Part shown: one piece after another, positions 5,462 through 35,700 of the stretch | Position numbering within the stretch: position 1 is the stretch's first letter | Layout: the number at the start of each line of letters is the position of its first letter | Assembly (NCBI GenBank): GCA_026023565.1 | Contig: JAPETS010000024.1 | Span: forward strand, 434,001-498,000 | Direction: 5' to 3' | DNA length: 64,000 bases | Origin: Cirrosporium novae-zelandiae | Lineage: Eukaryota | Notes under the pieces: generated by a model | What the model was told of the DNA's origin: nothing | Database searches by the model: none | The model's input: the letters and a program-made list of their open reading frames with translations, nothing else | Program-made: the position numbers and the translations under genes

Positions 5462-8194
5462 ATGGATGGCTTTTCCTACCTTGGTGGTGGGGGACAAAAC
5501 CCCAATCCCAACAATCAATTCCCGACCTTCTACCAAAACATACCTTCAGCAAATCAACCCATGGCCTTTGAACAACAGGAAAACTATCTCCAAAACGTTC
5601 CACCATGGTATCCACAAGCTGCAGCTGCGATGGGGATGGCACCACCAACAATGGGATTTGCCACACGCCCACGCCACCGATCGACACCAGGACCAGATCA
5701 TGTCAAACACAGAAGGACCAGAAGTGGGTGCTACACCTGTCGGCAGAGGAGAGTAAAGGTTATTGTCAACCAGTCCAAACGGAAAAAGTGATCATGGACT
5801 GATTTCTTCGATAGTGCGATGAGGCTCGTCCAGTGTGTGAACGTAAGTTGCCTGTGCTTCTGCTGGTATTTGCTATTACTTAGAGCTTCACAATAGGCTG
5901 CAAAAAGGGAGGGCGAGAATGCGTCTATCCTGAACCAAATTTAGGGTCCAAGTCTTCTGCTCGAAATCGAAAAGCAAGTCGAGGGTGCTCCCCATCCTCA
6001 GGGGAAGATGTAGACGAAGACCTAGAAATTCTGGAAACCATTCCGGACGAAGAGGAAGGAGAAAGCAGCCCTCAACAACCCAAAGAAGGGGGAGGGCCTG
6101 CTGTGAGGTCAAGACTAGCTAACATTTCAAAGAAACGAAGTATGCAAACAATGCGAAAAAAGTTTCCCCCTCCAAAGCAGCTTAAGCAATCATCTTCAAA
6201 AGAAACCAGCTCTTCTCCTTCTTCGACAGACATCTCGGCCTCTCCAATCTCCCATCCTGGCCAGAATCCCGAGAATGCTGGACGCTCAGACACCTCGAGG
6301 GAAAGCTCCCAGCCTTCGGTGAAGTGGGCACACCTGGCTCCGGATTTACGAACGCATCTGGAATTCCATCAAGAGCATATGACACATCACCATTACTTCC
6401 TTAAGTACGATATTATAGATTTTGTGCACAACAATTTGATCGATCTCGCATTAAATTACCCGCCATTGCTATCTGCAGTTGTGGGATTTGCAGCTTTCCA
6501 TCACACACTTCGGAATCCAAATGGCCGCATCCAGGATTTCCTGGGTTACTACAACCGCTCTGTTTCTCTGCTTCGCCATTGTCTGAAGAAGGGGGAGAAA
6601 TATTCAGATGCCATGATTCTGACAACTCTTCAGCTCGCCACCTTTGAAGAATATCTGGGTGACTGGATTAATCTCTTTGGACACCAAAAAGCCGCCCTGG
6701 AGATGATGAGAGACCTTTACACCCCCACAAGCATCAATAAAACTGAAGTTGGCCGGTACATCTTTTCCTGGTATGCGCGCTTCGACATTTTTGCAGGCCT
6801 CCTAGCCCGCAGTGGAACCATTCTCGAGCCCGAGTGGTTCTATGCAAATCACCATTACTACGAGCAGCAGGTTGCACGTTTTCCCACTAATTTCCACCAC
6901 AAAATCGAAGCAACGGTAGCATATTACCGAGTCTTGAGTATGGACATGGCAAATCTATTCACCAAACTTCCGAATGGTGCCATCTCAATCGATGACTTTA
7001 CAATAGAAAACAACACCATCAGTTCCCGTATCGCCTCCATTCGCAAGGTGCTCAACGATCTCATCGACCCCCAATATGTGGTAACGACATTTCCCTCTCA
7101 TCCTCCCCTCTCCCCCTCCGACATAGTAAACCCCTACCTCCCAGGTGGCCTTTTCAAAGGCCCCCACCACATCCTCAACCACATGTACCTGGATTTGCTT
7201 GCCCTTGACCTGATGCACAAATCGCAAACCTGTCTTCTTCTCCAACAACCGCTACCCCCTGAGCTAGGGGAAAATGCACTGGAGCAATGTCGGATATTCG
7301 AGGCGGTAGAAATGTGGCCAGAGAGTCCAGAAGGGGCGTTGCTCAATGCGCATGCCAGCTTGGGCTTAGCAAGCGTGTATCTGCCCAAGGATGAGCGACA
7401 TGCGATGTGGTGTAGGAGAAAATTGGCGGGTATTGAGCAGTTGGGGTAAATTCTCCCTTTTCTTTTTATTTTACTCGGGCGGCATCATCACCCTTTCTTC
7501 CTCTTGAACCTACAAATATGTACAAGAAATGATCAAAACGAGTTTATGCCTTCCAGAACACCCATCCATACATCTGCATTTCATTAACATCGGGGAAAAC
7601 AGCTACATCTACCCAGTCACACTGCGCTACAAGCTTTCTGAATTCTGGTCCATTCCTTCCGTCCGCACATGGTGGCTCCCCGACGGCGAAAACCTAACCC
7701 CCATTCTCTGCGCCCTCCGCGCCTTTATCCAAGAACGCACCCTTCCCCCGACCACCGACTTTTCCATGGGTGGCGAACTCGACGACCTCGCTCGCGAAAA
7801 AGAAAACATTCGCGAAATGAAAGGCTTATTCGCGGGTCTGACTCTCAGTGAAGACGGAAGCAGCAGTGGTTTCGGTGATAGCCCTGATAGCGTAGGAACT
7901 TTGGGCAGCAGTAGGGATAGTGGACAGAGTCCACAGAGCCAGGGGGTTCATGGAACGGGGGCTCCGATCAGCAGCATGCCTATGGTTAGCGAAGAAAGTG
8001 GAGAAGAAAAGGGATCGCAGATTCAGATGCATATTCTGCAGCACCAACACCAACAACAAAATATGACGGGGATGATGGGGGCGTTCGGAGGCGGGGATGA
8101 CGCCGGGGGAAGCACTTTTCTGGATCCGACGCACTGGGCCGTGGAGGATCAGACGTGGACGGGGATGCGACACCCGGATGCCCCGTATGAATGA
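5462..8194 (+). CDS. Zn(II)2Cys6 transcription factor with a fungal-specific TF domain; exons ~5462-5758, 5815-5842, 5897-7445, 7603-8194
   Basis: Splicing at GT..AG sites joins RSGCYTCRQRRVK / CDEARPVCE / RCKKGGRECVYP into a complete six-Cys cluster. A helical middle region (LQLATFEEYLGDW, WYARFD) follows. Confidence 0.9.
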
Positions 8195-8699
8195 TGGATG
8201 AGGCTTACTAGTTGACATGGCATGCTCATGATGGGAAGCTGCTACGAACCCATGTGCGGTGCCTGCAGTCCTAAAGGGAAGATCCCCGTCAGATTCAGCC
8301 ATGGTCCAAAAATATATTGTCTCGCAACACGTAACTAAGCGTCGGGCATGAACAACAAGGCAGATGGGCGTACATGGGGAACAAGCATAAGGTAACTACA
8401 TATGGTATGTAGTTCCGCCTTTTCAGCCGCAAGTTCCAGTCATCTGGCCATGAGCATAACAAACAAAAGAGGAGGAAGAAGAGAAAAGGAAATAGAAAAG
8501 AAGGGTTCGAAATACCACCCAGCCATTCATCCATCCATTTCAACCTCTCTAGCTAAGGTCTAGAGAGTAAACCAGGACGACTCGCCCACCCATATTCACT
8601 TCATTTCACTCCACTGGGGGGTCAACACAACTGGAATCCAAATTAGTATAATTCTTTCTTCAATCACCTTGTCTTATTACTGTATTTTTACTCTCCCCC

Positions 8700-10785
8700 T
8701 TTTTTTTCGGGTCATTGGTTTCTTTTTTTTTTATACCATACCAAAAATGTTTGTCATAGAGACCTTATCTTTTTTCATGTATGTACGACAAAATCTTTTT
8801 GGGATAGCATAGGATGGGATAGGATGGAAGTGTGGGAATCCAAAGAGTGAGTGAAAACTTTATACAACTTGGGTTAAAAGAAAAAAGAAAATAATTTTCT
8901 TAAACGGCTAAAAAACTTGAATACTTGGTTACAATCAAATTGATTGATATGTTGCAAGACTTTATCGACATCTTTTCCCTCATATATATATACGCATCTG
9001 CTACACCGCAGCCAGGTTATATATCCTAACCCTAACACACTAGGTATGTATCCGCTCAAGTAGCGGATATATCCCACGTCCTTTTGGCTTTGGTTTAGTT
9101 AGGTAAGAAGTGTTGTTGGCTTGTCTTCTAACACAGCATCCATCTTCCCAACAACTTTTAAAGAAAGAAAGAAAGAAAGAAAGAAAAAAAAGTCCTTTAT
9201 TCAATTCCTCATAGTTTTTTCTCTCCTCTATTCCCCTTTCTATTCTCCCTTTTCATTCCCACCCCCCACCCCTCCCTTTTATTTTATATTCTTTTTTTCC
9301 CCTATCCAAAATAAAATTCATTTATACAATACAAATACACCACAGATATCGCAGACATGGGGGGTTTTTTTTACTAAGATCAACAAGAGGGGTAAGTTTT
9401 TCTCTCCATACCTACATACTTACCTACTTGCCTGCCTACCGTATTACATATACTCCTTTCGAGTCCCCCTTTTTTTTTCACCTCGGTTTTCTTTCCTTTT
9501 CTTTCCTCTCTTCACTTCTAATACCTCACATTTCTACCCTTAAATCACCTTTACTTACCTCACTTACCCATCGAAACTCACTAAAACTAACCTAACATAA
9601 TAAATAACCAAGTATCCAACCAACCAATCAACCTATAACAAACTAATATTCTAGTAAATATATACATATCCTCTATCCAATTTTTTTTTTAATTTACCAA
9701 CCGACTGAATCGAATCATTGAATAAGCGCCAAGCGAAGCAAAGCATGAATGGATAGGTGGATGGATGGGATGGGGGTCGGCAAACCAACAATTCGCGTTT
9801 GTTGAAAGCTCACTTCCATGTTTACCGCGCGGTAAACTCTATATCGCCCTTAAGCAATGTTAAGCAATGTTGGGTCGGGCTTGGAGTCCTTTTTTTTTAG
9901 AGCTGTCTATCTGTCTGCTACCACTACCATCACCACCACCACCTCTACTTTTATTTCATTTTCATTTTCTTTCAAAAAAAAAGGGGAGAAAGCAAGAAAA
10001 AGGGGAGAAAGCAAGAAAAAGGGGTGAATTATCAGGGGTTGAGCTATCGGGTATCGAGGTACGCACCACACCGCACACACTGCTTCATGCACCATATACT
10101 ATGCAGTATTGGAATATTAGGTTACTAGGTTACCCTTTGATGCCAGTTTTCGATTTTGATTTTTGAGAACTTCAACGGCAATGACATGACTAGGGGTTTA
10201 TTATTGTACAGTAGTACTATTGTGTTATCTAAGCTATGGCCCTTTATGATTTCTTGTGTTTGTGTTCATTCATAATCCATGCTATAGGATGAGATTTAAT
10301 TTCATTCACCACAGACACAGCTGATAGCTGACTTTAGCTTTAATTATCTAACTTAACGGTCTATCCTAACCTGTTGTTGTTGTTATTGTTATTGTTCGAG
10401 GTGGTATATATAAATAGGTAAGCAGTTCAGAAGGTAGGTAGTAGGTAGGTAGACATTCTTCCTACACATCCCTATTCACCCATCACCCATTACCTGCTTC
10501 TTTCTTCTTCCCTTTTCCTCTCTCCTCTTGCCCCATCCCTATCCCCATTTATTTTCCCATTTACTGAACCATCTATAGATGAATTGGATAGAATTACTTG
10601 GTTGATAAGAGGGATGGTTGCAACCCCCCCCCCCCCCCCTCCTCTCCCTGAGGTTATGATATATATATATTCATGTACGTATGTAAGAACAAATAATCGA
10701 TAATCGAAAACCAGGGGCAATATATATTGTATGTGTGGTTTTCATGTCTTATATGTTATATGACATATAAAGTATAACATAAGGT
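8700..10785 (+). ncRNA. TER: Putative telomerase RNA (TER/TR); boundaries approximate, especially the 5' end
   Basis: No credible ORF. Template CCTAACCCTAAC at 9025-9036, 11-bp hairpin at 9046-9072, U-rich pseudoknot candidate at 9075-9195, P6/P6.1-like junction at 9837-9902, ATAAGT at 10786 with CTAAC branch motifs at 10846 and 10854. Confidence 0.8.
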
Positions 10786-11001
10786 ATAAGTGTAAGATAC
10801 AAAACCAATACAGACGTTACCTATGTACGGGAACGTATGGGTAATCTAACCAACTAACCAACCAACCATGGACTCTAGACTTTATATGAACCATGAGCCA
10901 TTAATTAATTGAATTAAAAAAACACACATATGCATTTTTGTTGTTATCTTATTACTTTCGTTTTTGCCTTTGTTCTGTTTTTTTTAGACATACAATACAC
11001 A

Positions 11002-11147
11002 ATACACAATACAGATATAAATATAATAATGGTTAATGTTAGACCCAATGAATGAAGAAGGTGGAAAAAAAGATGAAAAATGAAGAATGATGGAAAGAAA
11101 GAACACACACATACACAATACATACACAATACAGATATAAATATAAT
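11002..11147. repeat. 26-bp direct repeat (atacacaatacagatataaatataat) at 11002-11027 and 11122-11147
   Basis: Two identical copies 120 bp apart, read directly. Confidence 0.85.
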
Positions 11148-11169
11148 GTTAAACCCGAAGAATGAAAAC

Positions 11170-11262
11170 GAAGAAGAAGAAGAAGAAGAAGAAGAAGAAG
11201 AAGAAGAAGAAGAAGAAGAAGAAGAAGAAGAAGAAGAAGAAGAAGAAGAAGAAGAAGAAGAA
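11170..11262. repeat. (GAA)31 trinucleotide microsatellite
   Basis: Perfect gaa run of 93 bp. Confidence 0.95.
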
Positions 11263-11758
11263 GATGGAAAATAAAAGAATATAGATATATACAACATAAC
11301 CTGGGGGGAAACACACTCCTGGGGAGAGAGAAAAAAGAAGAAAAGGGAAGAAAAAGAGAAAAAAAAGGATGTTGATGTTGTTGCTTGTATGTTTCCTTTT
11401 CTCCATTTCCATTTAAATCTACCCATTCATACATCCATCTCCTACTGTAATATTCCCTTCCTGTTTTTCTATACCGTTATGAAGAAGAAGAACCCATGAC
11501 ATCCATCCATTCCTTTACAAACCACAAACCACAAAGCAAGTAAGAAGCCCCCCCCGCACCCCCAACCTCCTACCACATCACACCACCATCCGCACAATTA
11601 ATCAATCAACCAATCATTCACCCCTCAGAATCCGAATCCGAATCCGAATCCCATGAAACAGGAGGCCGAGGACTCCTCATCCTAATAATTCTCCGCCAAC
11701 CTAACCCGATAAAAGAAAGTTAGTCAAGTTAGCCAGCCAAGCAATTAAGAGTTAAGAG

Positions 11759-13488
11759 TTAGCTCTCTGGAGCAGGTGTGGATTTTTCTTTTTCTTTTTC
11801 TTCTCCTTCTGAGCTTTCTTCTGAGGTGGTATTGTGGATGTTGATGTTATCGTCATTGTCATTGTCATTGTCATTGTCGTCAGAGGCGGTAGTGGAAGTG
11901 GAAGTGGAAGTGGGAGCGGAAGGCTCACCACTCTCTTGTTTCTCCCCTCCTGCTCCCTCGTCTTTTGCTGTCGTAGTAGCAATAACTTCCGGCGCGTCCG
12001 CCGTCTCGGCTGGCGTTTCTTCTCTCTGTTCTTCCGTGTCTGGTGGTTCGGTTTCCGGGTTTGGTTCTTTTTCTCTTTCTTCTCCTCCTTCTTCCTTTTC
12101 AGGTATTATTTCCCCTTCTCCTGGTTCCTCGCTCGTCAAAGACTCCGGCTCGTGAGTCACCGTTGGTTCTCTTTCCTGCTCATCGTCCGAGGACATTCCC
12201 ACCTCCAACACCGTAATGTCATCTCTATCATCATTGTCAACCTCATTCGCTTCATCAATAGTAGTAACAGCCAATCCCGTCGAAGGAGTAGTTTTATGTT
12301 TCCTGGTGGTTGCCCCCGTCGACACCGTAGTCTCCACCCCCCCTACCGCAAGCTCGGCCGGCTTCTCAATAATCGTCTCTCGTCCCGTAAGGACATTGTC
12401 TGGGGGACTATCTCTTTTCTTCGACAAAATCGTAACACTTCTTCCATGGCCCTTCGCAGGCGTCTGTGCCTCCTTCTCCGTTACCGTCTTTGCAATGGGC
12501 GTCTCGCCTTCTACGTCGCCGCCGTCAGAGCCGACTTCCGCTTCTGATGGTATAGTGTAATTATCCTCGGGGATAAGGCCGTAGACATCACATACAGTCT
12601 TGAAGAGGATGTAGAGTCCATCGTGACCTTCGACTTGCCAGAAGACAGAACGGTGCTGGAACCATGCATGTGCAAATATGCGGTAGACACGACGAAAGAT
12701 ATTCGTTAGATGGCGGATAGATTGTTGGATGCCGGGCGTGTTCTGTGACATCCCTGATGGAGGGGAAGTGGAGGCGCCCAGATTTAGTGACATTCGACTT
12801 GGGAATTGTGATGGGCTTGTTAGGAGGTTAGAGGCCCAGTCGAGGGTGTGGCAGCAGTAATCTATGGCGCAGCATGCCTTTGGAGGATCATGGACAGCAC
12901 ACAGGTACTGCCATTCCGAAGCGCGCATTTCGGAACACGTTTGAGCGGAGCAGGGAGGCGAGAGGGCAAAAAAGGCAACAATGAGGGCGTTGGCTTTGAG
13001 GGTTAGGAAGCGACATAGCTCGTAGAGCCAGAGGGGTGGGGAGATTGATGCGGGAGCTTGAGCGAGCCGGAGAGCTTTATCACGGGTGAGGGGGATGGTG
13101 GTTTTGGAGGGGGGTGGGGAAGTATAATATGAGTATAGGGCGGCAAGGTGTTCTTGGAGTTGGAAAGGAGAATCAAGCTGGCCCTCGTTTATTAGCTGCC
13201 ATCATCATAATCTCAACAACAGTGGCTCAAAATCAAATATACCTGATTTAGTGGTACAAGTGGTGGTCCCGATGTCATATCCGCTGCCTTTGTGCCAGGT
13301 CGTGTCCTCCTAGCTGAACTTGTTTCTGCCTCGGTAGCATTTTGTTCATTTTGTGTATTCGAGAATCCATCCCCAACTGTAGGAGATTTAGGACCTATCT
13401 GATCTTCTGTAAATGGAGGAGGGCTGGGAAGTCGGGGGGAGCTGGAAGGCGAGGCAGCGCCAGCGCTTGTGGATGATGCAGTCGCCAT
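11759..13488 (-). CDS. mob3: MOB family protein, phocein/Mob3(Mob4) type (STRIPAK subunit); exons 13488-13243 and 13177-11759
   Basis: The spliced product reads LDSPFQLQEHL...WLYELCRFLT...CSEMRASEWQYLCAVHDPPKACCAIDYCCHTLDW...RRVYRIFAHAWFQH, the phocein signature, followed by an acidic disordered tail. Confidence 0.9.
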
Positions 13489-17022: not shown

Positions 17023-18481
17023 GGTGGAAGGCGGTGGTGACGGAAAATAGCAAACTAGCTTAAAGGTTGCCAGAGCATTAGGATGTTGAGTTGAATAGAG
17101 GATGAAGACAGTTCTATTGAAGGATATTGTATTGATTGTTGTCAGTTAGCTTTTGTGGCACTGTTATGACGGCTCTGCACTGTCAAAGTGCGTGAAAGTC
17201 GGTAGGCCTAACTATTTTAATAAGAAATAAATGTCAGCACGTTTCCCTTTGTTTTGACAAAAGTCGCGTTATAATATCATCGAATAAACCGGAATCGGAG
17301 GTTGTTGATTACACTGAGACACAGTTTGCAATGCTACCATGACTGGTGGTGTCCAAGAATAGAAATGCTTCACCTATATCGGGGTTGTAACGTACCTAAA
17401 GATCGCAAGGTAGCGAAATTCTTTGTCGATGATTCAACAATTCAATGCCGATGGATTGGCAAAGAATGCTTCGAAGGGAGGTTCCTGTAGATTAGATGAC
17501 GGGGGGGGGGGGGGTGGTGATGGAGGTGGTGGTAGTGGTGGTGAGTAGATGGTCGCAGGTGTCCAGGAGCCGAAAGGAACGAACAGTGAGGCAAGAATGA
17601 AAAGTCGGACCAAATCTACATGGTATAGGGAGAATATCAGAATGGAATAGGTCGACGGTGGATGTATAGAGAGAGGGACATGGCGGGGAAGGATAATCAG
17701 AGGTAAATGGTGGGTTTGGGGGGTTTGGAGGTTTGGCGCTCAGCCTCATAACTAGAAGAGAGATGGGATCGATGCTGCTTCTCTCCCTCTCTGTTCATTG
17801 ATTTTCTCTCCTCTATCCGCAATTGTCAGAGAACTAACCAAAGAGTGACCCGGGAACGCTTGGCCGGTCGAGAACTTCCAGGGGGTGTGTGGGGGGTGTT
17901 TAAATTAGAAGGAACATCAAAGTTACCAGGGTTACATGGGACGCATGGACAGACCCTATGGAGATCCTATATCCACACTTTATGAACATGATATGCACAC
18001 ATACACACACCACACACACCTTAATTAATTTATTTAATACTTTTTGTACAGTCAAAGACTCAAAGTATTTCATGAGAACCACCAACCTATTGTCTATATT
18101 GGTAACTGAAACTCTTTCCTCCACTTATTATTATTATTAGTATTACAACGTGTGCATTTTATTAACTGATGATAATATTGATGGAAAATATCACCAACCG
18201 TTATATTCCCTCTCATTCTTGTCTCATACGTGGCTGCAGTCGAGCATCAATTATTCCCTAGCTACAGAAAATTCCAAGAACTAAAAGAGTCGAGACTGTA
18301 CCGCCCCATTGCATTTGCATCTGCACCTTGTGCGGGTGTTGATAACTACAATCAAATCTGCCTATCATAACTCCCATCGTACTCGGAAACTTTTGAGCTA
18401 CTGTGATTGGATAAAAAAAAATAATCGTTTTCATACAAAATCTTGAAGAAGCCATTAATTAATAATTACCACCAGTACAAG

Positions 18482-32700: not shown

Positions 32701-35700
32701 GATACATACTATTTTCTTTCTAAGGATATTCCATGTCTGGCCCACTTTTGACCAGTTCTGACGTGTTCCAAAACGAGTCCGCCTCATGCTCTTCCCTTCA
32801 CCGCCACAACGATCGGTTTCACAACCTCTAAACTTTGGGACCCATTTCGCCCCCACAGTTAACAATTGCAGAGCATTCTACCAAAATTCTAGAAACCCTA
32901 TGCTAGCAATCCCTAAGGACAGTTGCACCTCATTTCGAACGGAAACCTCGAGCTAGAAATCCATCCGCCTCTCATTTCTCCAAACTAGCATATCATATTT
33001 CTTTCCACGAGATTTACCTTACCTTACCCCGAATTTCTTCTAGGGACTGGACCACTCGTTCATAAACCTCAGTATTATATCAAACAAACACATACGGCCA
33101 TAGGCTTGAGAAAACTGGGCATCCCGTCCGCTCTGCCACACATAACCTCGAGGCCGGCTGGTTAGTAGCTGGGTCGGTGACGACCAGTGAATCCTAGCTG
33201 CTGTATGTGTTTTGTTTTTTGTTTTCCTTCTTTTTTGTTTCTTTTTATAAAGAAGATACAGCCCTCTGGCTATTAGCGTTTGGCACTCTATACGGTGGTT
33301 ATTTCCCCAAGGTCTCCTAAGTATTTGTCGGGATGCCATAAATACCAAGTTGGGTTTGATTCCCAAGAGCGCTAGTGATTGGTCACATTGGTATCAGTGT
33401 TCTTCTGTATTTACTGATGCAAAGGTCTAACTCGACTAGAACTTGACCTTGACCCTTAGCCAAAGGCTTCATCTTGCCTGAAAGCCTCCCTAACATGAAT
33501 AGTCCAAGTCCGCCTCTACTAACACCTACCCATAACCTATATTATATTGCTCAATATACAAAAGAACCAAATAACTAATATCCCAATCCCTTTATACCTC
33601 GGCCCCCGCCGCTATAAACCTATAACTAAAGATACAAGCTCTCATCCCGCATCCCACATCCCTATATTCAATACCCACCTTGGTATGATGCATATAGCCA
33701 CACCATATAACATATCCACACTACAGTAAATCGACAAACCAACAACGAACATTCTTTCACTCCCCACCCCCTCTAAACCAAACCAACCTTAACAAAAAAC
33801 CGGACCGAACCCAACTTTTAAAAATTAAAACCACCCTTCGACCCTTCAGTACATCCACTCCGACAATGAAAAAGCAACCCCTCCATTCCCCTCTAGCTCC
33901 TAATTCCTAAGTCCAAAGTCCAATCCCGCGACTTCCCAAGGTCCAAGATCACAAAACCCCAAACCCCAAATGGACGGATAGATAAGACTCCAGAGAACTG
34001 AACTGAAAATCCCTATCTATAGTCTTTATTACCTTATTTATCTTAAACCCTAAACTAAACCAGACCAAACCAAACTAGTTCCCCCCCTCTCTCTCACACT
34101 CTTCTCGCAGTCCTCACAGACCCAACCTACCTACTATCTACCTATATTCCTATCTCCCTTGCCCGAAAAAGCCATATTCCATTCATACATTCATTCATAC
34201 ATACATGCCTTTCCGAGGAAGGAAGGGACGTTCTCAAATCTAAATCCAAATCCAAACTCTTCTGAGCTCGGAGCTCGGAGATGAATAGGTTCGTGCGTAG
34301 TCTAGTATATAGATACATAGATACATAACCCCTCCCCCCCCCCAGCCACTCGATAACTATAGTTAAGATTTAACAATAACAACAACAACGACAACAAAAA
34401 AGTCCCAAAATTAAGAGGGAAAGAAAAACTAAACACAATACCCACGCATAAAAAATATTACAATATTACAACCCTTACAAATCTCATATAATTACACCAA
34501 ATCCATCATACCGCACTTGCACCCCCCATCCCCCATCCCCCATCCCCCTTTCCTTTCCTTTCTCCCCTTCCCAAACTCCCCCTAACCCCCAACCATCCCC
34601 CAAAAAACCCCCCCGAATCCAGATCCAGATCCAGATACATATATAAACACACTACTAACTATCCCCTATATCCTTATAATTTATAATTTTCCTAAAGCAT
34701 ATATTGAATATTGGCAATTTAAACACGGGGATGGGGGTGGAGATGGAGATGAACAGAAAATAGAACGATGGAGAGATGGGATCCCTTTTTCAAGATCTGG
34801 ATGGATGGAGGAGATGGATATCCTCAACCCCCCTTCCCCCTTTTATTGTTATTTTTATTGTTATTGTTATTCCCATCCTCTCATCCTCTCTCATGCAGAG
34901 AAGAAGAAAAAATATAAGATATAAGGTATAAGGTATGGGATTTATATTCGTATTCGTATTTATCTTTATATCCCTAGTAACTAGACTGCTTACTTACTTA
35001 CTTACCTCCCTGCTTGCATATAGATAGATAGATAGATAGATAGATATACATTCGAACCGAACCTGAGTATGGATATGCACGGGGGTTGGGGATGTGGATG
35101 GGGATATGGATAAGTATGGATGATACAGATGGGATAACACAGATGGATGGATGGATGGGACATGTAATATATATAGAATACGAGATACTCACAACATCAC
35201 CCCAGAATCCCAGGAATCCCAGAATCCATCCCCCCAAACCCATTTCAAAACTATCCCACCACCGATTCACACCCCTTTTCCTCTTTCCCCTTCTAGCCTC
35301 CCCTTTCCCCTTTCCCATTCTTCAGGTTAAGGCTAAACCAAACCAAACCAAACCAAACCAAAAAAACGCAAACCCGAGGTAATTAGTTCTGTTTCCTAGA
35401 AGAGAGAGTAAAAAAAAAGGGGGTGTTGATAAATATAAATCTCATGTTTAGCTTTCAACTTAATGAATTTTTTTTAGCATTATACTCACACAGATACACA
35501 GACACACAAACAGCTCTCATAATTCAATAATCATTTCATATGGCAGTGTAGTAGTAGTAGCAAGTTAGTAATAGTAATGAAGAAAAAATTTCTTTCGTAT
35601 ACCAATCAATCAATCCCTAATATCATCCAATCCAATTCCATTTCCATTGCATCCCATACCATACCATCCCCCCCTAATCTTGTCCATCCATCCATCCACC

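Follow-up and report, generated by a model that had tools for sequence, protein, structure and literature searches.

A telomere-template-like 12-mer inside a dispersed repeat in an intergenic spacer of Cirrosporium novae-zelandiae

The locus

The window, a 64-kb stretch from a metagenome-assembled genome of Cirrosporium novae-zelandiae (Pezizomycotina), includes a convergent gene pair whose stop codons face each other across an AT-rich spacer filled with simple repeats. A first-pass annotation had placed a probable telomerase RNA (TER) gene in this spacer, between a Zn2Cys6 factor and a Mob gene. Both neighbors are as it described them, and their locus tags are consecutive (M1834_003986 and M1834_003987). 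The gap of 3.5 kb without an annotated gene is among the longest in the window. The features considered here are collected in Table 1.

The same annotation called the interval free of ORFs and saw in it conserved islands separated by linkers expanded by simple repeats. ORFs of 140 amino acids (9121-9543) and 99 amino acids (9867-10166) are in fact present, but their translations are of low complexity and have no Pfam match at E ≤ 1. The simple repeats are there too, but every spacer of the window looks likewise. There are 14 ORF-free stretches of at least 700 nt in the window, and because all of them are rich in simple repeats, the look of this spacer is generic.

Table 1. Positions within the window of the spacer, its bordering genes, and the sequence features discussed
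Feature	Position	Strand	Description
Zn2Cys6/Fungal_trans_2 factor	ends at 8194	+	Convergent neighbor
Spacer	8195..11758		Between the stop codons of the convergent pair; AT-rich, simple-repeat-filled, without annotated gene
Template-boundary-like helix	8982..9024	+	Predicted fold; 7 A-U pairs around a 4-bp CTGC/GCAG hairpin
Dispersed repeat, one copy	9002..9108		Covers helix, 12-mer, and hairpin; matches in other contigs
Telomere-template-like 12-mer CCTAACCCTAAC	9025..9036	+	Sequence match; two full repeats complementary to TTAGGG
11-bp hairpin	9046..9072	+	Directly 3′ of the 12-mer, within the dispersed repeat; in MFE and centroid fold
P6.1-like hairpin GGGCTTGGAGTCC	9877..9889	+	4-bp stem, loop TTGGA (fits NUNGN), followed by T9; outside any compact three-way junction
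Hairpin with U-rich loop	10145..10171	+	Relaxed scan; resembles the 5′ half of a TER pseudoknot
Compact P5/P6/P6.1-like junction	10567..10619	+	Alternative candidate from a blind scan with criteria fixed beforehand
A-initial intron-like unit	10786..10878	+	93 nt; ATAAGT 10786-10791, CTAAC 10846 and 10854, TAG 10876-10878
Mob1/phocein gene	ends at 11759	-	Convergent neighbor

The 12-mer and the repeat that carries it

The telomere-complementary template claimed for this spacer is present on the + strand. The transcribed strand of a TER gene should carry a template of no fewer than ~1.5 telomere repeats, and CCTAACCCTAAC holds two, assuming TTAGGG telomeres. It is the sole telomeric k-mer of 10 or more bases on either strand of the 64 kb, and the sole match to CCCTAACCCTAA at up to one mismatch, for which 0.26 matches are expected and at least one was obtained in 23 of 100 shuffles. 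Exact 12-mers of this kind are expected by chance at 0.54-1.25 per Mb of the window's spacer DNA, or some tens per 36-Mb genome, and for this reason the 12-mer alone is no marker of a TER.

The 12-mer has structured neighbors on both sides. The predicted boundary-like helix ends at the base just 5′ of it (9024). Shuffling yields a helix as long as this in 174 of 5000 cases, but when spacer positions of the window are drawn at random, 247 of 1639 have one as well. On the 3′ side, a hairpin and a U-rich pseudoknot had been proposed at 9046-9195. The hairpin forms in the minimum free energy (MFE) structure; the pseudoknot fails in a strict scan, as described below.

A TER is expected to be a single-copy gene with a template core unique in the genome. 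Here the template region belongs to a repeat that is dispersed in this genome. This counts against the locus being a TER gene, because multiple copies are not expected where a single-copy TER is under the strongest constraint. At least six other contigs from the probable source run match ~9002-9108 at 80% or more, and weaker likeness reaches ~9135. At least seven pieces from other contigs fall on 9002-9108; these contigs range from 35 nt to 28.8 kb, and five of them measure 6-29 kb. Two further runs of that study, both of DNA contigs, gave no match to this stretch. Summed depth is 1618 in the bin 9004-9079 compared with 318 elsewhere, and the other repeat-bearing contigs have depths of 352-365, near the 318 of the locus itself. 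No second copy was found in the 64-kb window or in 80 Mob1/phocein loci of relatives.

Other copies, where they are readable, differ from this one at the 12-mer itself. The closest has no mismatches over 9007-9085 and 14 gap positions, and it lacks the 12-mer because 8 of these gaps fall within 9030-9038. In three other copies the likeness extends beyond 9048 in the upstream direction (agreement 0.98) and includes CCTAAC once, and the second CCTAAC is absent from the repeat copies that are readable there. The change may be a gain at this locus or a loss in the other copies. As to the class of the repeat, an ARAGORN scan of 8000-12000 gave no sign of a tRNA or SINE origin. Two further assignments were dropped by eye: for a Helitron 3′ end, the likeness between copies crosses the would-be end, and for a MITE, no inverted termini were seen.

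TER-like motifs downstream

A TER would also be expected to carry an H-type pseudoknot with a U-rich loop, able to form a triple helix, between template and junction. A strict scan of 9037-10560 gave no match, although the scan is simple and may miss a bulged pseudoknot. The A-rich part of the pseudoknot that had been proposed is an (AAAG)7.8 microsatellite. A relaxed scan gave two matches, neither of them usable: one lacks a second stem rich in A-U pairs, and the other would have the junction at 10567-10619 inside it. The latter begins with the hairpin at 10145-10171, whose sole partner is TCGAAAA at 10704-10710. It was rejected as topologically implausible, given that Qi 2013 (PMC3592445) describes template-pseudoknot and junction as two TER domains that function separately.

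The three-way junction proposed at 9837-9902 is not supported either. The P6.1-like hairpin GGGCTTGGAGTCC exists, but the region fails the criteria for a compact junction and folds as a four-way junction (z = -0.96), and the proposed structure has an energy of -8.3 compared with an MFE of -18.2 kcal/mol. The alternative at 10567-10619 is the sole one among four P6.1-like hairpins in 9037-11758 to pass, and it passes each criterion barely. Its predicted P5 is AACCA/TGGTT (extendable to 7 bp), its P6 has 5 bp (10572-10592), the linker is ATTA, and P6.1 is CTTGGTTGATAAG at 10597-10609, with a 4-bp stem and a GTTGA loop. Such junctions occur 43 times in 1,990,590 nt and in 50 of 3000 shuffles. The structure lies 4.5-7.4 kcal/mol above the MFE (-4.2 or -7.1 compared with -11.6 kcal/mol), and its P6.1 pairs have a probability of 0.012. 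Neither junction model is thus favored by predicted thermodynamics. The alternative lies 176 nt before ATAAGT, and this position fits published TER geometry, yet the candidate is weak and thermodynamically disfavored.

The signals at the 3′ side were read correctly in the first-pass annotation as ATAAGT followed by two CTAAC branch points, to which a TAG can be added that closes a unit of 93 nt. The ATAAGT lies 1750 nt downstream of the 12-mer. There are 34 such intron-like units in 1,990,590 nt, which gives ~0.05 expected in 2.7 kb, and the one at 10786 is the only one of the 34 with a junction within 400 nt upstream. The CTAAC words, however, lie within a low-complexity run of CCAA type that is 91% identical to 9605-9626. 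No U-rich Sm-like tract was found beside ATAAGT. If the locus is a TER gene, this unit would be its putative signal for 3′-end formation by spliceosomal cleavage, recognizable at the level of motifs. Canonical 5′ splice-site hexamers are also found on the + strand (GTAAGT at 9392, GTACGT at 10675, and GTATGT at 10679 and 10729).

Folding, RNA families, and relatives

The interval 8700-10900 shows no excess folding over control spacers: its mean folding z on the + strand is -0.14 (21 windows, one below -2), and the means of three control spacers range from -0.17 to -0.46. A gathering-threshold Rfam scan of the whole window found 5S rRNA only. At E ≤ 10, no telomerase family is among the 18 matches in 7500-12500, the 9 in 10520-10900, or the 15 in 8750-10560, all of which score far below gathering.

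For synteny, metagenome contigs were scanned with a Mob1/phocein alignment, which gave 305 matched stretches and 207 relatives, with 80 loci (931,295 nt) kept. The convergent pair of factor and Mob is kept in 2 of the 80 (L061 and L074), and on the strand of the factor neither of them has a telomeric 8-mer in the gap separating the two genes, a gap that in L074 measures at most ~0.9 kb. That both relatives that keep the pair have no template between the two genes counts against the TER reading. Telomeric 9-mers occur in 25 of the 80 loci, and in none of the 80 does one lie within 4 kb past the Mob 3′ end on the opposite strand, the layout of the window. Exact 12-mers in two loci were considered as TER candidates and rejected. 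One (L001, at 17824) belongs to a CTAACC-rich run that follows the stop of a gene and is on the same strand as that gene, and the other (L043, at 8574) lies in apparently low-complexity coding sequence. A blastn comparison of the spacer with the 80 loci gave 62 alignments, and the 40 viewed are all of low complexity (best E = 5e-4, 82 nt at 69.5%). The islands described as conserved thus find no conservation in these relatives.

Interpretation

On balance, the locus is probably an ordinary spacer between convergent genes that holds TER-like motifs by chance, and not a TER gene, a reading that is held with limited confidence. The 12-mer would then sit in one copy of a dispersed repeat of ~100-130 bp whose other copies have CCTAAC once. 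Slippage-type tandem duplications at this copy (CCTAAC doubled, AC doubled, and TA steps in both hairpin arms) would have produced the perfect two-repeat 12-mer. The remaining motifs, i.e., the helix before the 12-mer, the P6.1-like hairpin, and the series ATAAGT-CTAAC-TAG, are short, weak matches in DNA that is AT-rich and of low complexity. The copies of the repeat and their indel pattern, together with the lack of a pseudoknot in the scans and of excess folding, are observed features of the locus, while the direction of the duplications and the coincidental nature of the motifs appear likely from them. Against an ordinary spacer stands the joint geometry of 12-mer, junction, and AU-intron-like unit, which is not easily had by chance: the chance product for intron unit plus junction is ~1e-3 per template site, to be set against tens of chance 12-mers per genome.

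That same geometry speaks for the possible, though doubtful, alternative that this is the TER gene of C. novae-zelandiae, transcribed by Pol II from the + strand as an RNA of ~1.8-2.1 kb. As read from the motifs, such an RNA would begin at ~8450-8800, have its boundary helix at 8982-9024 and its template within 9025-9036, and place the CR4/5-type junction at 10567-10619 rather than at 9837-9902. The first splicing step at ATAAGT (10786) would make the 3′ end, and the A at intron position 1 would block the second step. Such a gene would account for a perfect two-repeat template unique in the window, a helix ending directly before it, and an AU-type 5′ splice site with branch point and 3′ splice site at a distance like that in A. 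oryzae. It would also account for a junction with a 4-bp P6.1, a NUNGN loop, and an A-containing linker ahead of the putative cleavage site (1 of 34 units), all in an ORF-free, unannotated setting. It is opposed by the multi-copy state of template, helix, and hairpin, by the barely passing junction with its improbable P6.1 pairs, and by the absence of a U-rich-loop pseudoknot, of excess folding, and of conservation in the 80 related loci, including the two syntenic ones without a template. Two of the four islands on which the proposal was built, the pseudoknot and the junction at 9837-9902, have failed. A variant that accommodates the copies is similarly doubtful. It would be a true TER of the Xylobotryomycetes, a class without a described TER, with its junction at 10567-10619 and its 3′ end at 10786, whose template, helix, and hairpin are common to at least six dispersed, near-identical, template-defective fragments elsewhere in the genome. 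In that case either parts of the TER core would have spread to other places in the genome, or the template region would have taken up a repeat. Improbable, finally, is transcription of the spacer as long 3′ UTRs of the convergent genes or as an unrelated lncRNA with ordinary introns, in which case the splice-like signals would be real and the telomere-like 12-mer irrelevant. Both flanking genes do point into the gap, and since canonical hexamers lie upstream of CTAAC and TAG, an ordinary GU-AG intron could use them. However, there is no coding potential past the putative 3′ splice site, and no sequence feature favors such a transcript specifically.

Were the locus a true TER, it would extend by one member, in a class not yet sampled, a family that more than 70 Pezizomycotina are known to have, which has value for annotation but holds no surprise; its only unusual aspect would be a core in common with dispersed repeats. 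The lesson of the locus concerns screening. In AT-rich, slippage-prone fungal spacers, a perfect two-repeat telomere-like word with an AU “splice site” is insufficient for a TER call, and genome copy number and model-based core detection are needed before a call is made.

Comparison with known systems

Interstitial telomere-like sequence that arises by slippage inside a dispersed short repeat offers one system for comparison. As in such sequence, the 12-mer differs from its paralogues by tandem duplications of whole units, the spacers are rich in microsatellites, and the element is a short one that forms a hairpin and occurs in dispersed, nearly identical copies. A difference is that no terminal inverted repeats or target-site duplication are defined here, and the other copies are seen as fragments.

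Known TERs of the Pezizomycotina offer the other. The background that had been cited for them, long Pol II RNAs with a template-pseudoknot core, a P6/P6.1 domain, and a spliceosome-generated 3′ end, is correct according to Qi 2013 (PMC3592445), Kuprys 2013 (PMC3603654), and Kannan 2015 (PMC4299874). In Qi 2013, the Neurospora crassa TER (NcrTER) is 2049 nt long with P6/6.1 at nt 1826-1864, and its template core, TAACCCTAA, is contained within the 12-mer of the candidate (PMC3592445). The candidate resembles NcrTER in its long ORF-free setting and in a junction with a 4-bp P6.1 and NUNGN loop ~180 nt before the putative 3′ end (PMC3592445). It differs in that its template region is multi-copy and no U-rich-loop pseudoknot was found. 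Its P6 has 5 bp and an 11-nt loop, whereas a short 9-bp stem is described for NcrTER (PMC3592445), and its linker measures 4 nt, although an alternative fold would shorten it to 1 nt, an A.

Relative to the Aspergillus TERs, the predicted boundary helix consists here of 7 A-U pairs, of a kind seen at 15% of random spacer positions. In Kuprys 2013, the Aspergilli have a CGGC(3-5)U(7-12) Sm-like tract at the splice site, while the candidate has none; its nearest pyrimidine tract, C15TCCTCTCCCT, lies ~135 nt upstream of the splice site (PMC3603654). The Aspergillus TER neighbors named in the same paper (vacuolar sorting protein, 3-oxoacyl-ACP reductase, PPIase, and arrestin, with Zpr1 in A. oryzae) are not those of the candidate (PMC3603654). 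The likenesses lie in the template and the 3′ end. The 11-mer template given for human and A. fumigatus is contained within the 12-mer, and the template reported for A. fumigatus and N. fischeri, CUAACCCUAAC, is the same in the candidate (PMC3603654). [quoted passage not shown] Its distance of 1750 nt from 12-mer to ATAAGT falls within the 1567-1775 nt that separate template and 3′ end in A. oryzae (Kuprys, PMC3603654).

Locus and annotation

Cirrosporium novae-zelandiae belongs to the class Xylobotryomycetes of the Pezizomycotina. M1834_003986 and M1834_003987 are convergent and carry consecutive tags, so the interval between them is a spacer without annotation. The Mob1/phocein ORF matches the C-terminal part of M1834_003987 at 100% identity and contains the Mob1/phocein domain, and the M1834_003986 protein ends where its ORF does, at 8194. 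The first-pass annotation proposed a telomerase RNA (TER) gene here and called the region ORF-less, which holds insofar as there is no annotation and no Pfam match at E<=1 for the spacer ORFs; ORFs of 140 aa and 99 aa do exist, with low-complexity translations.

A (GAA)n microsatellite of ~36 units (11157-11264) lies 500-600 nt past the Mob1/phocein stop codon, probably within or just beyond the 3' untranslated region. A solitary 5S rRNA gene at 33090-33209 (+; RF00001, 67.8 bits, E = 3.9e-12) is the sole Rfam match above the gathering score across the 64 kb.

Features of the spacer and its flanking genes (window coordinates)
Feature	Position	Strand	Identity or basis
Zn2Cys6/Fungal_trans_2 factor	ORFs 6103-7449 and 7529-8194	+	M1834_003986, 788 aa
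Spacer, no annotated gene	8195-11758 (3564 nt)		between M1834_003986 and M1834_003987
Template-like 12-mer CCTAACCCTAAC	9025-9036	+	seen in sequence
Candidate compact P5/P6/P6.1 junction	10567-10619	+	motif scan
AU-intron-like unit, 93 nt, first base A	10786-10878	+	ATAAGT 10786, CTAAC 10846 and 10854, TAG 10876-10878
Mob1/phocein gene	ORF 11759-12928	-	M1834_003987, NCBI MAG hypothetical protein, 560 aa

A telomere-like word within a dispersed repeat

The telomere-complementary word proposed as template is present, with no other telomeric word of at least 10 bases on either strand of the window, and the hairpin described after it is real (11 bp, 9046-9072). By chance, each Mb of spacer DNA should contain the exact 12-mer 0.54-1.25 times, so that a 36-Mb genome with its one true TER would hold a few tens of chance occurrences. 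The candidate boundary helix 5' of the word has 7 A-U pairs, a length that 247 of 1639 randomly chosen spacer positions also reach. The stretch 9025-9104 also forms an imperfect palindrome centered on the hairpin (self-match 64% over 69 nt). CCTAAC at its left end is complementary to GTTAGG at 9099-9104, and a longer foldback that pairs the two could mask the template-like word.

Contigs from X1, the DNA contig run that is the probable source of the window, were aligned to 8700-10950 at a likeness of at least 80%. Among the pieces listed, at least seven from other contigs cover 9002-9108. Five of these contigs (6.0, 7.0, 10.8, 27.7, and 28.8 kb) each have a depth of 352-365, near the 318 of the locus itself, and the summed contig depth over the repeat region is 1618. 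Because matching copies lie on other contigs, the "template," with its helix and hairpin, belongs to a recently copied multi-copy element. Three copies extending upstream of 9048 are near-identical (agreement 0.98) and have a single CCTAAC. Another copy differs from 9007-9085 by 0 substitutions and 14 gap positions, eight of which delete bases in 9030-9038, leaving it without the 12-mer; the remaining gaps shorten both hairpin arms. Whole-unit tandem steps set the window copy apart from the others. Neither the window nor the 80 loci described below contain a further copy, and ARAGORN found no tRNA-like gene in 8000-12000.

Folding and linkers

The proposed pseudoknot was not recovered, as scans of the interval gave no strict and two relaxed candidates, neither acceptable. 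Four interval segments have folding z-scores of -0.96, -1.87, -0.86, and -0.99, and a sliding scan of the + strand averages -0.14; the means of three control spacers range from -0.17 to -0.46. Rfam scans of the region returned no telomerase family at E<=10. The simple-repeat-expanded linkers are there and are nothing special: Tandem Repeats Finder (70 rows) reports simple repeats in essentially all 14 window stretches of at least 700 nt without an ORF of 90 aa.

Relatives and synteny

Relatives were represented by 80 fungal loci (931,295 nt) drawn from metagenome contigs by Mob1/phocein alignment; among the matches listed, none has an island conserved with the interval. The convergent factor-Mob1/phocein pair is kept in two, L061 (7124-13104) and L074 (1203-5900). 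In neither locus does the intergenic part of the factor's strand contain a telomeric 8-mer; the L074 gap is at most ~0.9 kb. Synteny thus lends the TER proposal no support. Fungal TER positions are known to move, so these template-free spacers do not refute a TER here; the A. nidulans TER lacks the synteny common to other Aspergilli (PMC3603654). The Mob proteins of L061 and L074 are 45-46% identical to that of the window, and closer relatives (57-59%) lack the convergent pair. In the closest Mob1/phocein relative, L001, a CTAACC-rich run just past the stop codon of a gene (17824-17870, +) opens with the exact telomeric 12-mer CTAACCCTAACC, which shows that low-complexity spacers in related fungi can give rise to telomere-like words.

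Candidate junction and AU-intron-like unit

The junction motif, set before looking, comprised a perfect P6 hairpin of at least 5 bp, a 1-4 nt linker with an A, a P6.1 of 4 bp with a NUNGN loop, and a P5 of at least 4 bp. Across the 80 loci and the window, both strands (1,990,590 nt), it occurs 43 times (0.0216 per kb). Four P6.1-like hairpins lie in 9037-11758 (at 9797, 9877, 10597, and 10722), and only that at 10597 belongs to such a junction. The three-way junction previously placed at 9837-9902 is not supported, its hairpin at 9877 failing the motif. The surviving candidate has almost every feature at the bare minimum. Its energy is -4.2 or -7.1 kcal/mol (MFE -11.6), P6.1 has a pair probability of 0.012, and P5 alone is robust (0.91-0.95). 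Shuffling the 400 nt preceding ATAAGT yielded such a junction in 50 of 3000 trials. Directly 3' of the candidate junction lies a 15-C homopolymer (10625-10639); extra contig depth in its bin suggests that such runs are present elsewhere in the genome.

ATAAGT and its branch points are as first described, with the CTAAC words lying inside a CCAA-type run 91% identical to 9605-9626. The same 1,990,590 nt (both strands) hold 34 AU-intron-like units, of which the one at 10786 alone is preceded by a junction within 400 nt. A telomeric 9-mer is found in the 2.6 kb before four of the 34 units: the window's and those of L004, L005, and L080, whose flanks are identical at that site and count as one event. 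A long A/U-rich hairpin (10738-10785, +) ends right before ATAAGT and gives, among the 120-nt segments of the interval's + strand, the only z below -2 (-2.91); a microRNA-like Rfam match there is spurious (24 bits versus a gathering score of 80).

Weighing the readings

The balance tips toward an ordinary spacer, in which slippage would have made a telomere-like word within a dispersed repeat. What speaks strongly for a TER gene is the combination of an AU-intron at the right distance (chance ~0.01-0.05) with a junction at the right place (~0.017), jointly ~1e-3 or less. Against it stand a borderline junction, a missing pseudoknot, the absence of a folding signal, and the fact that some choices followed inspection of the data. 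The weightiest objection is the multi-copy core, judged very unlikely for a real TER. A TER gene is therefore possible but doubtful, and some other transcript is improbable. The first-pass observation survives for the 12-mer, hairpin, and AU-intron and falls for the pseudoknot and junction; its interpretation as TER leans negative.

Comparison with published TERs

Pezizomycotina TERs have been described from 2012-2013, in 73 species (Qi 2013, PMC3592445) and 13 species (Kuprys 2013, PMC3603654); a true TER here would add one more, from an unsampled class. Aspergillus TERs are ~1.6-2.1 kb long, with a helix ~2 nt 5' of the template and a 3' end marked by an Sm-like CGGC(3-5)U(7-12) tract followed by AUAAGU and, after it, a GCUAACU branch point; template to 3' end spans 1567-1775 nt in A. 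oryzae (PMC3603654). A block of the second splicing step is attributed to A at intron position 1 (PMC4299874), and an invariant A is described in the P6-P6.1 linker (PMC4993307). The Neurospora crassa TER (2049 nt) has the template 5'-UAACCCUAA-3', a template-pseudoknot domain at nt 225-1515, and a P6/6.1 element at nt 1826-1864 in which P6.1 is a 4-bp stem capped by a 5-nt NUNGN loop (PMC3592445). That element lies 185 nt from the 3' end, and the candidate junction here is similarly placed, 176 nt before ATAAGT.
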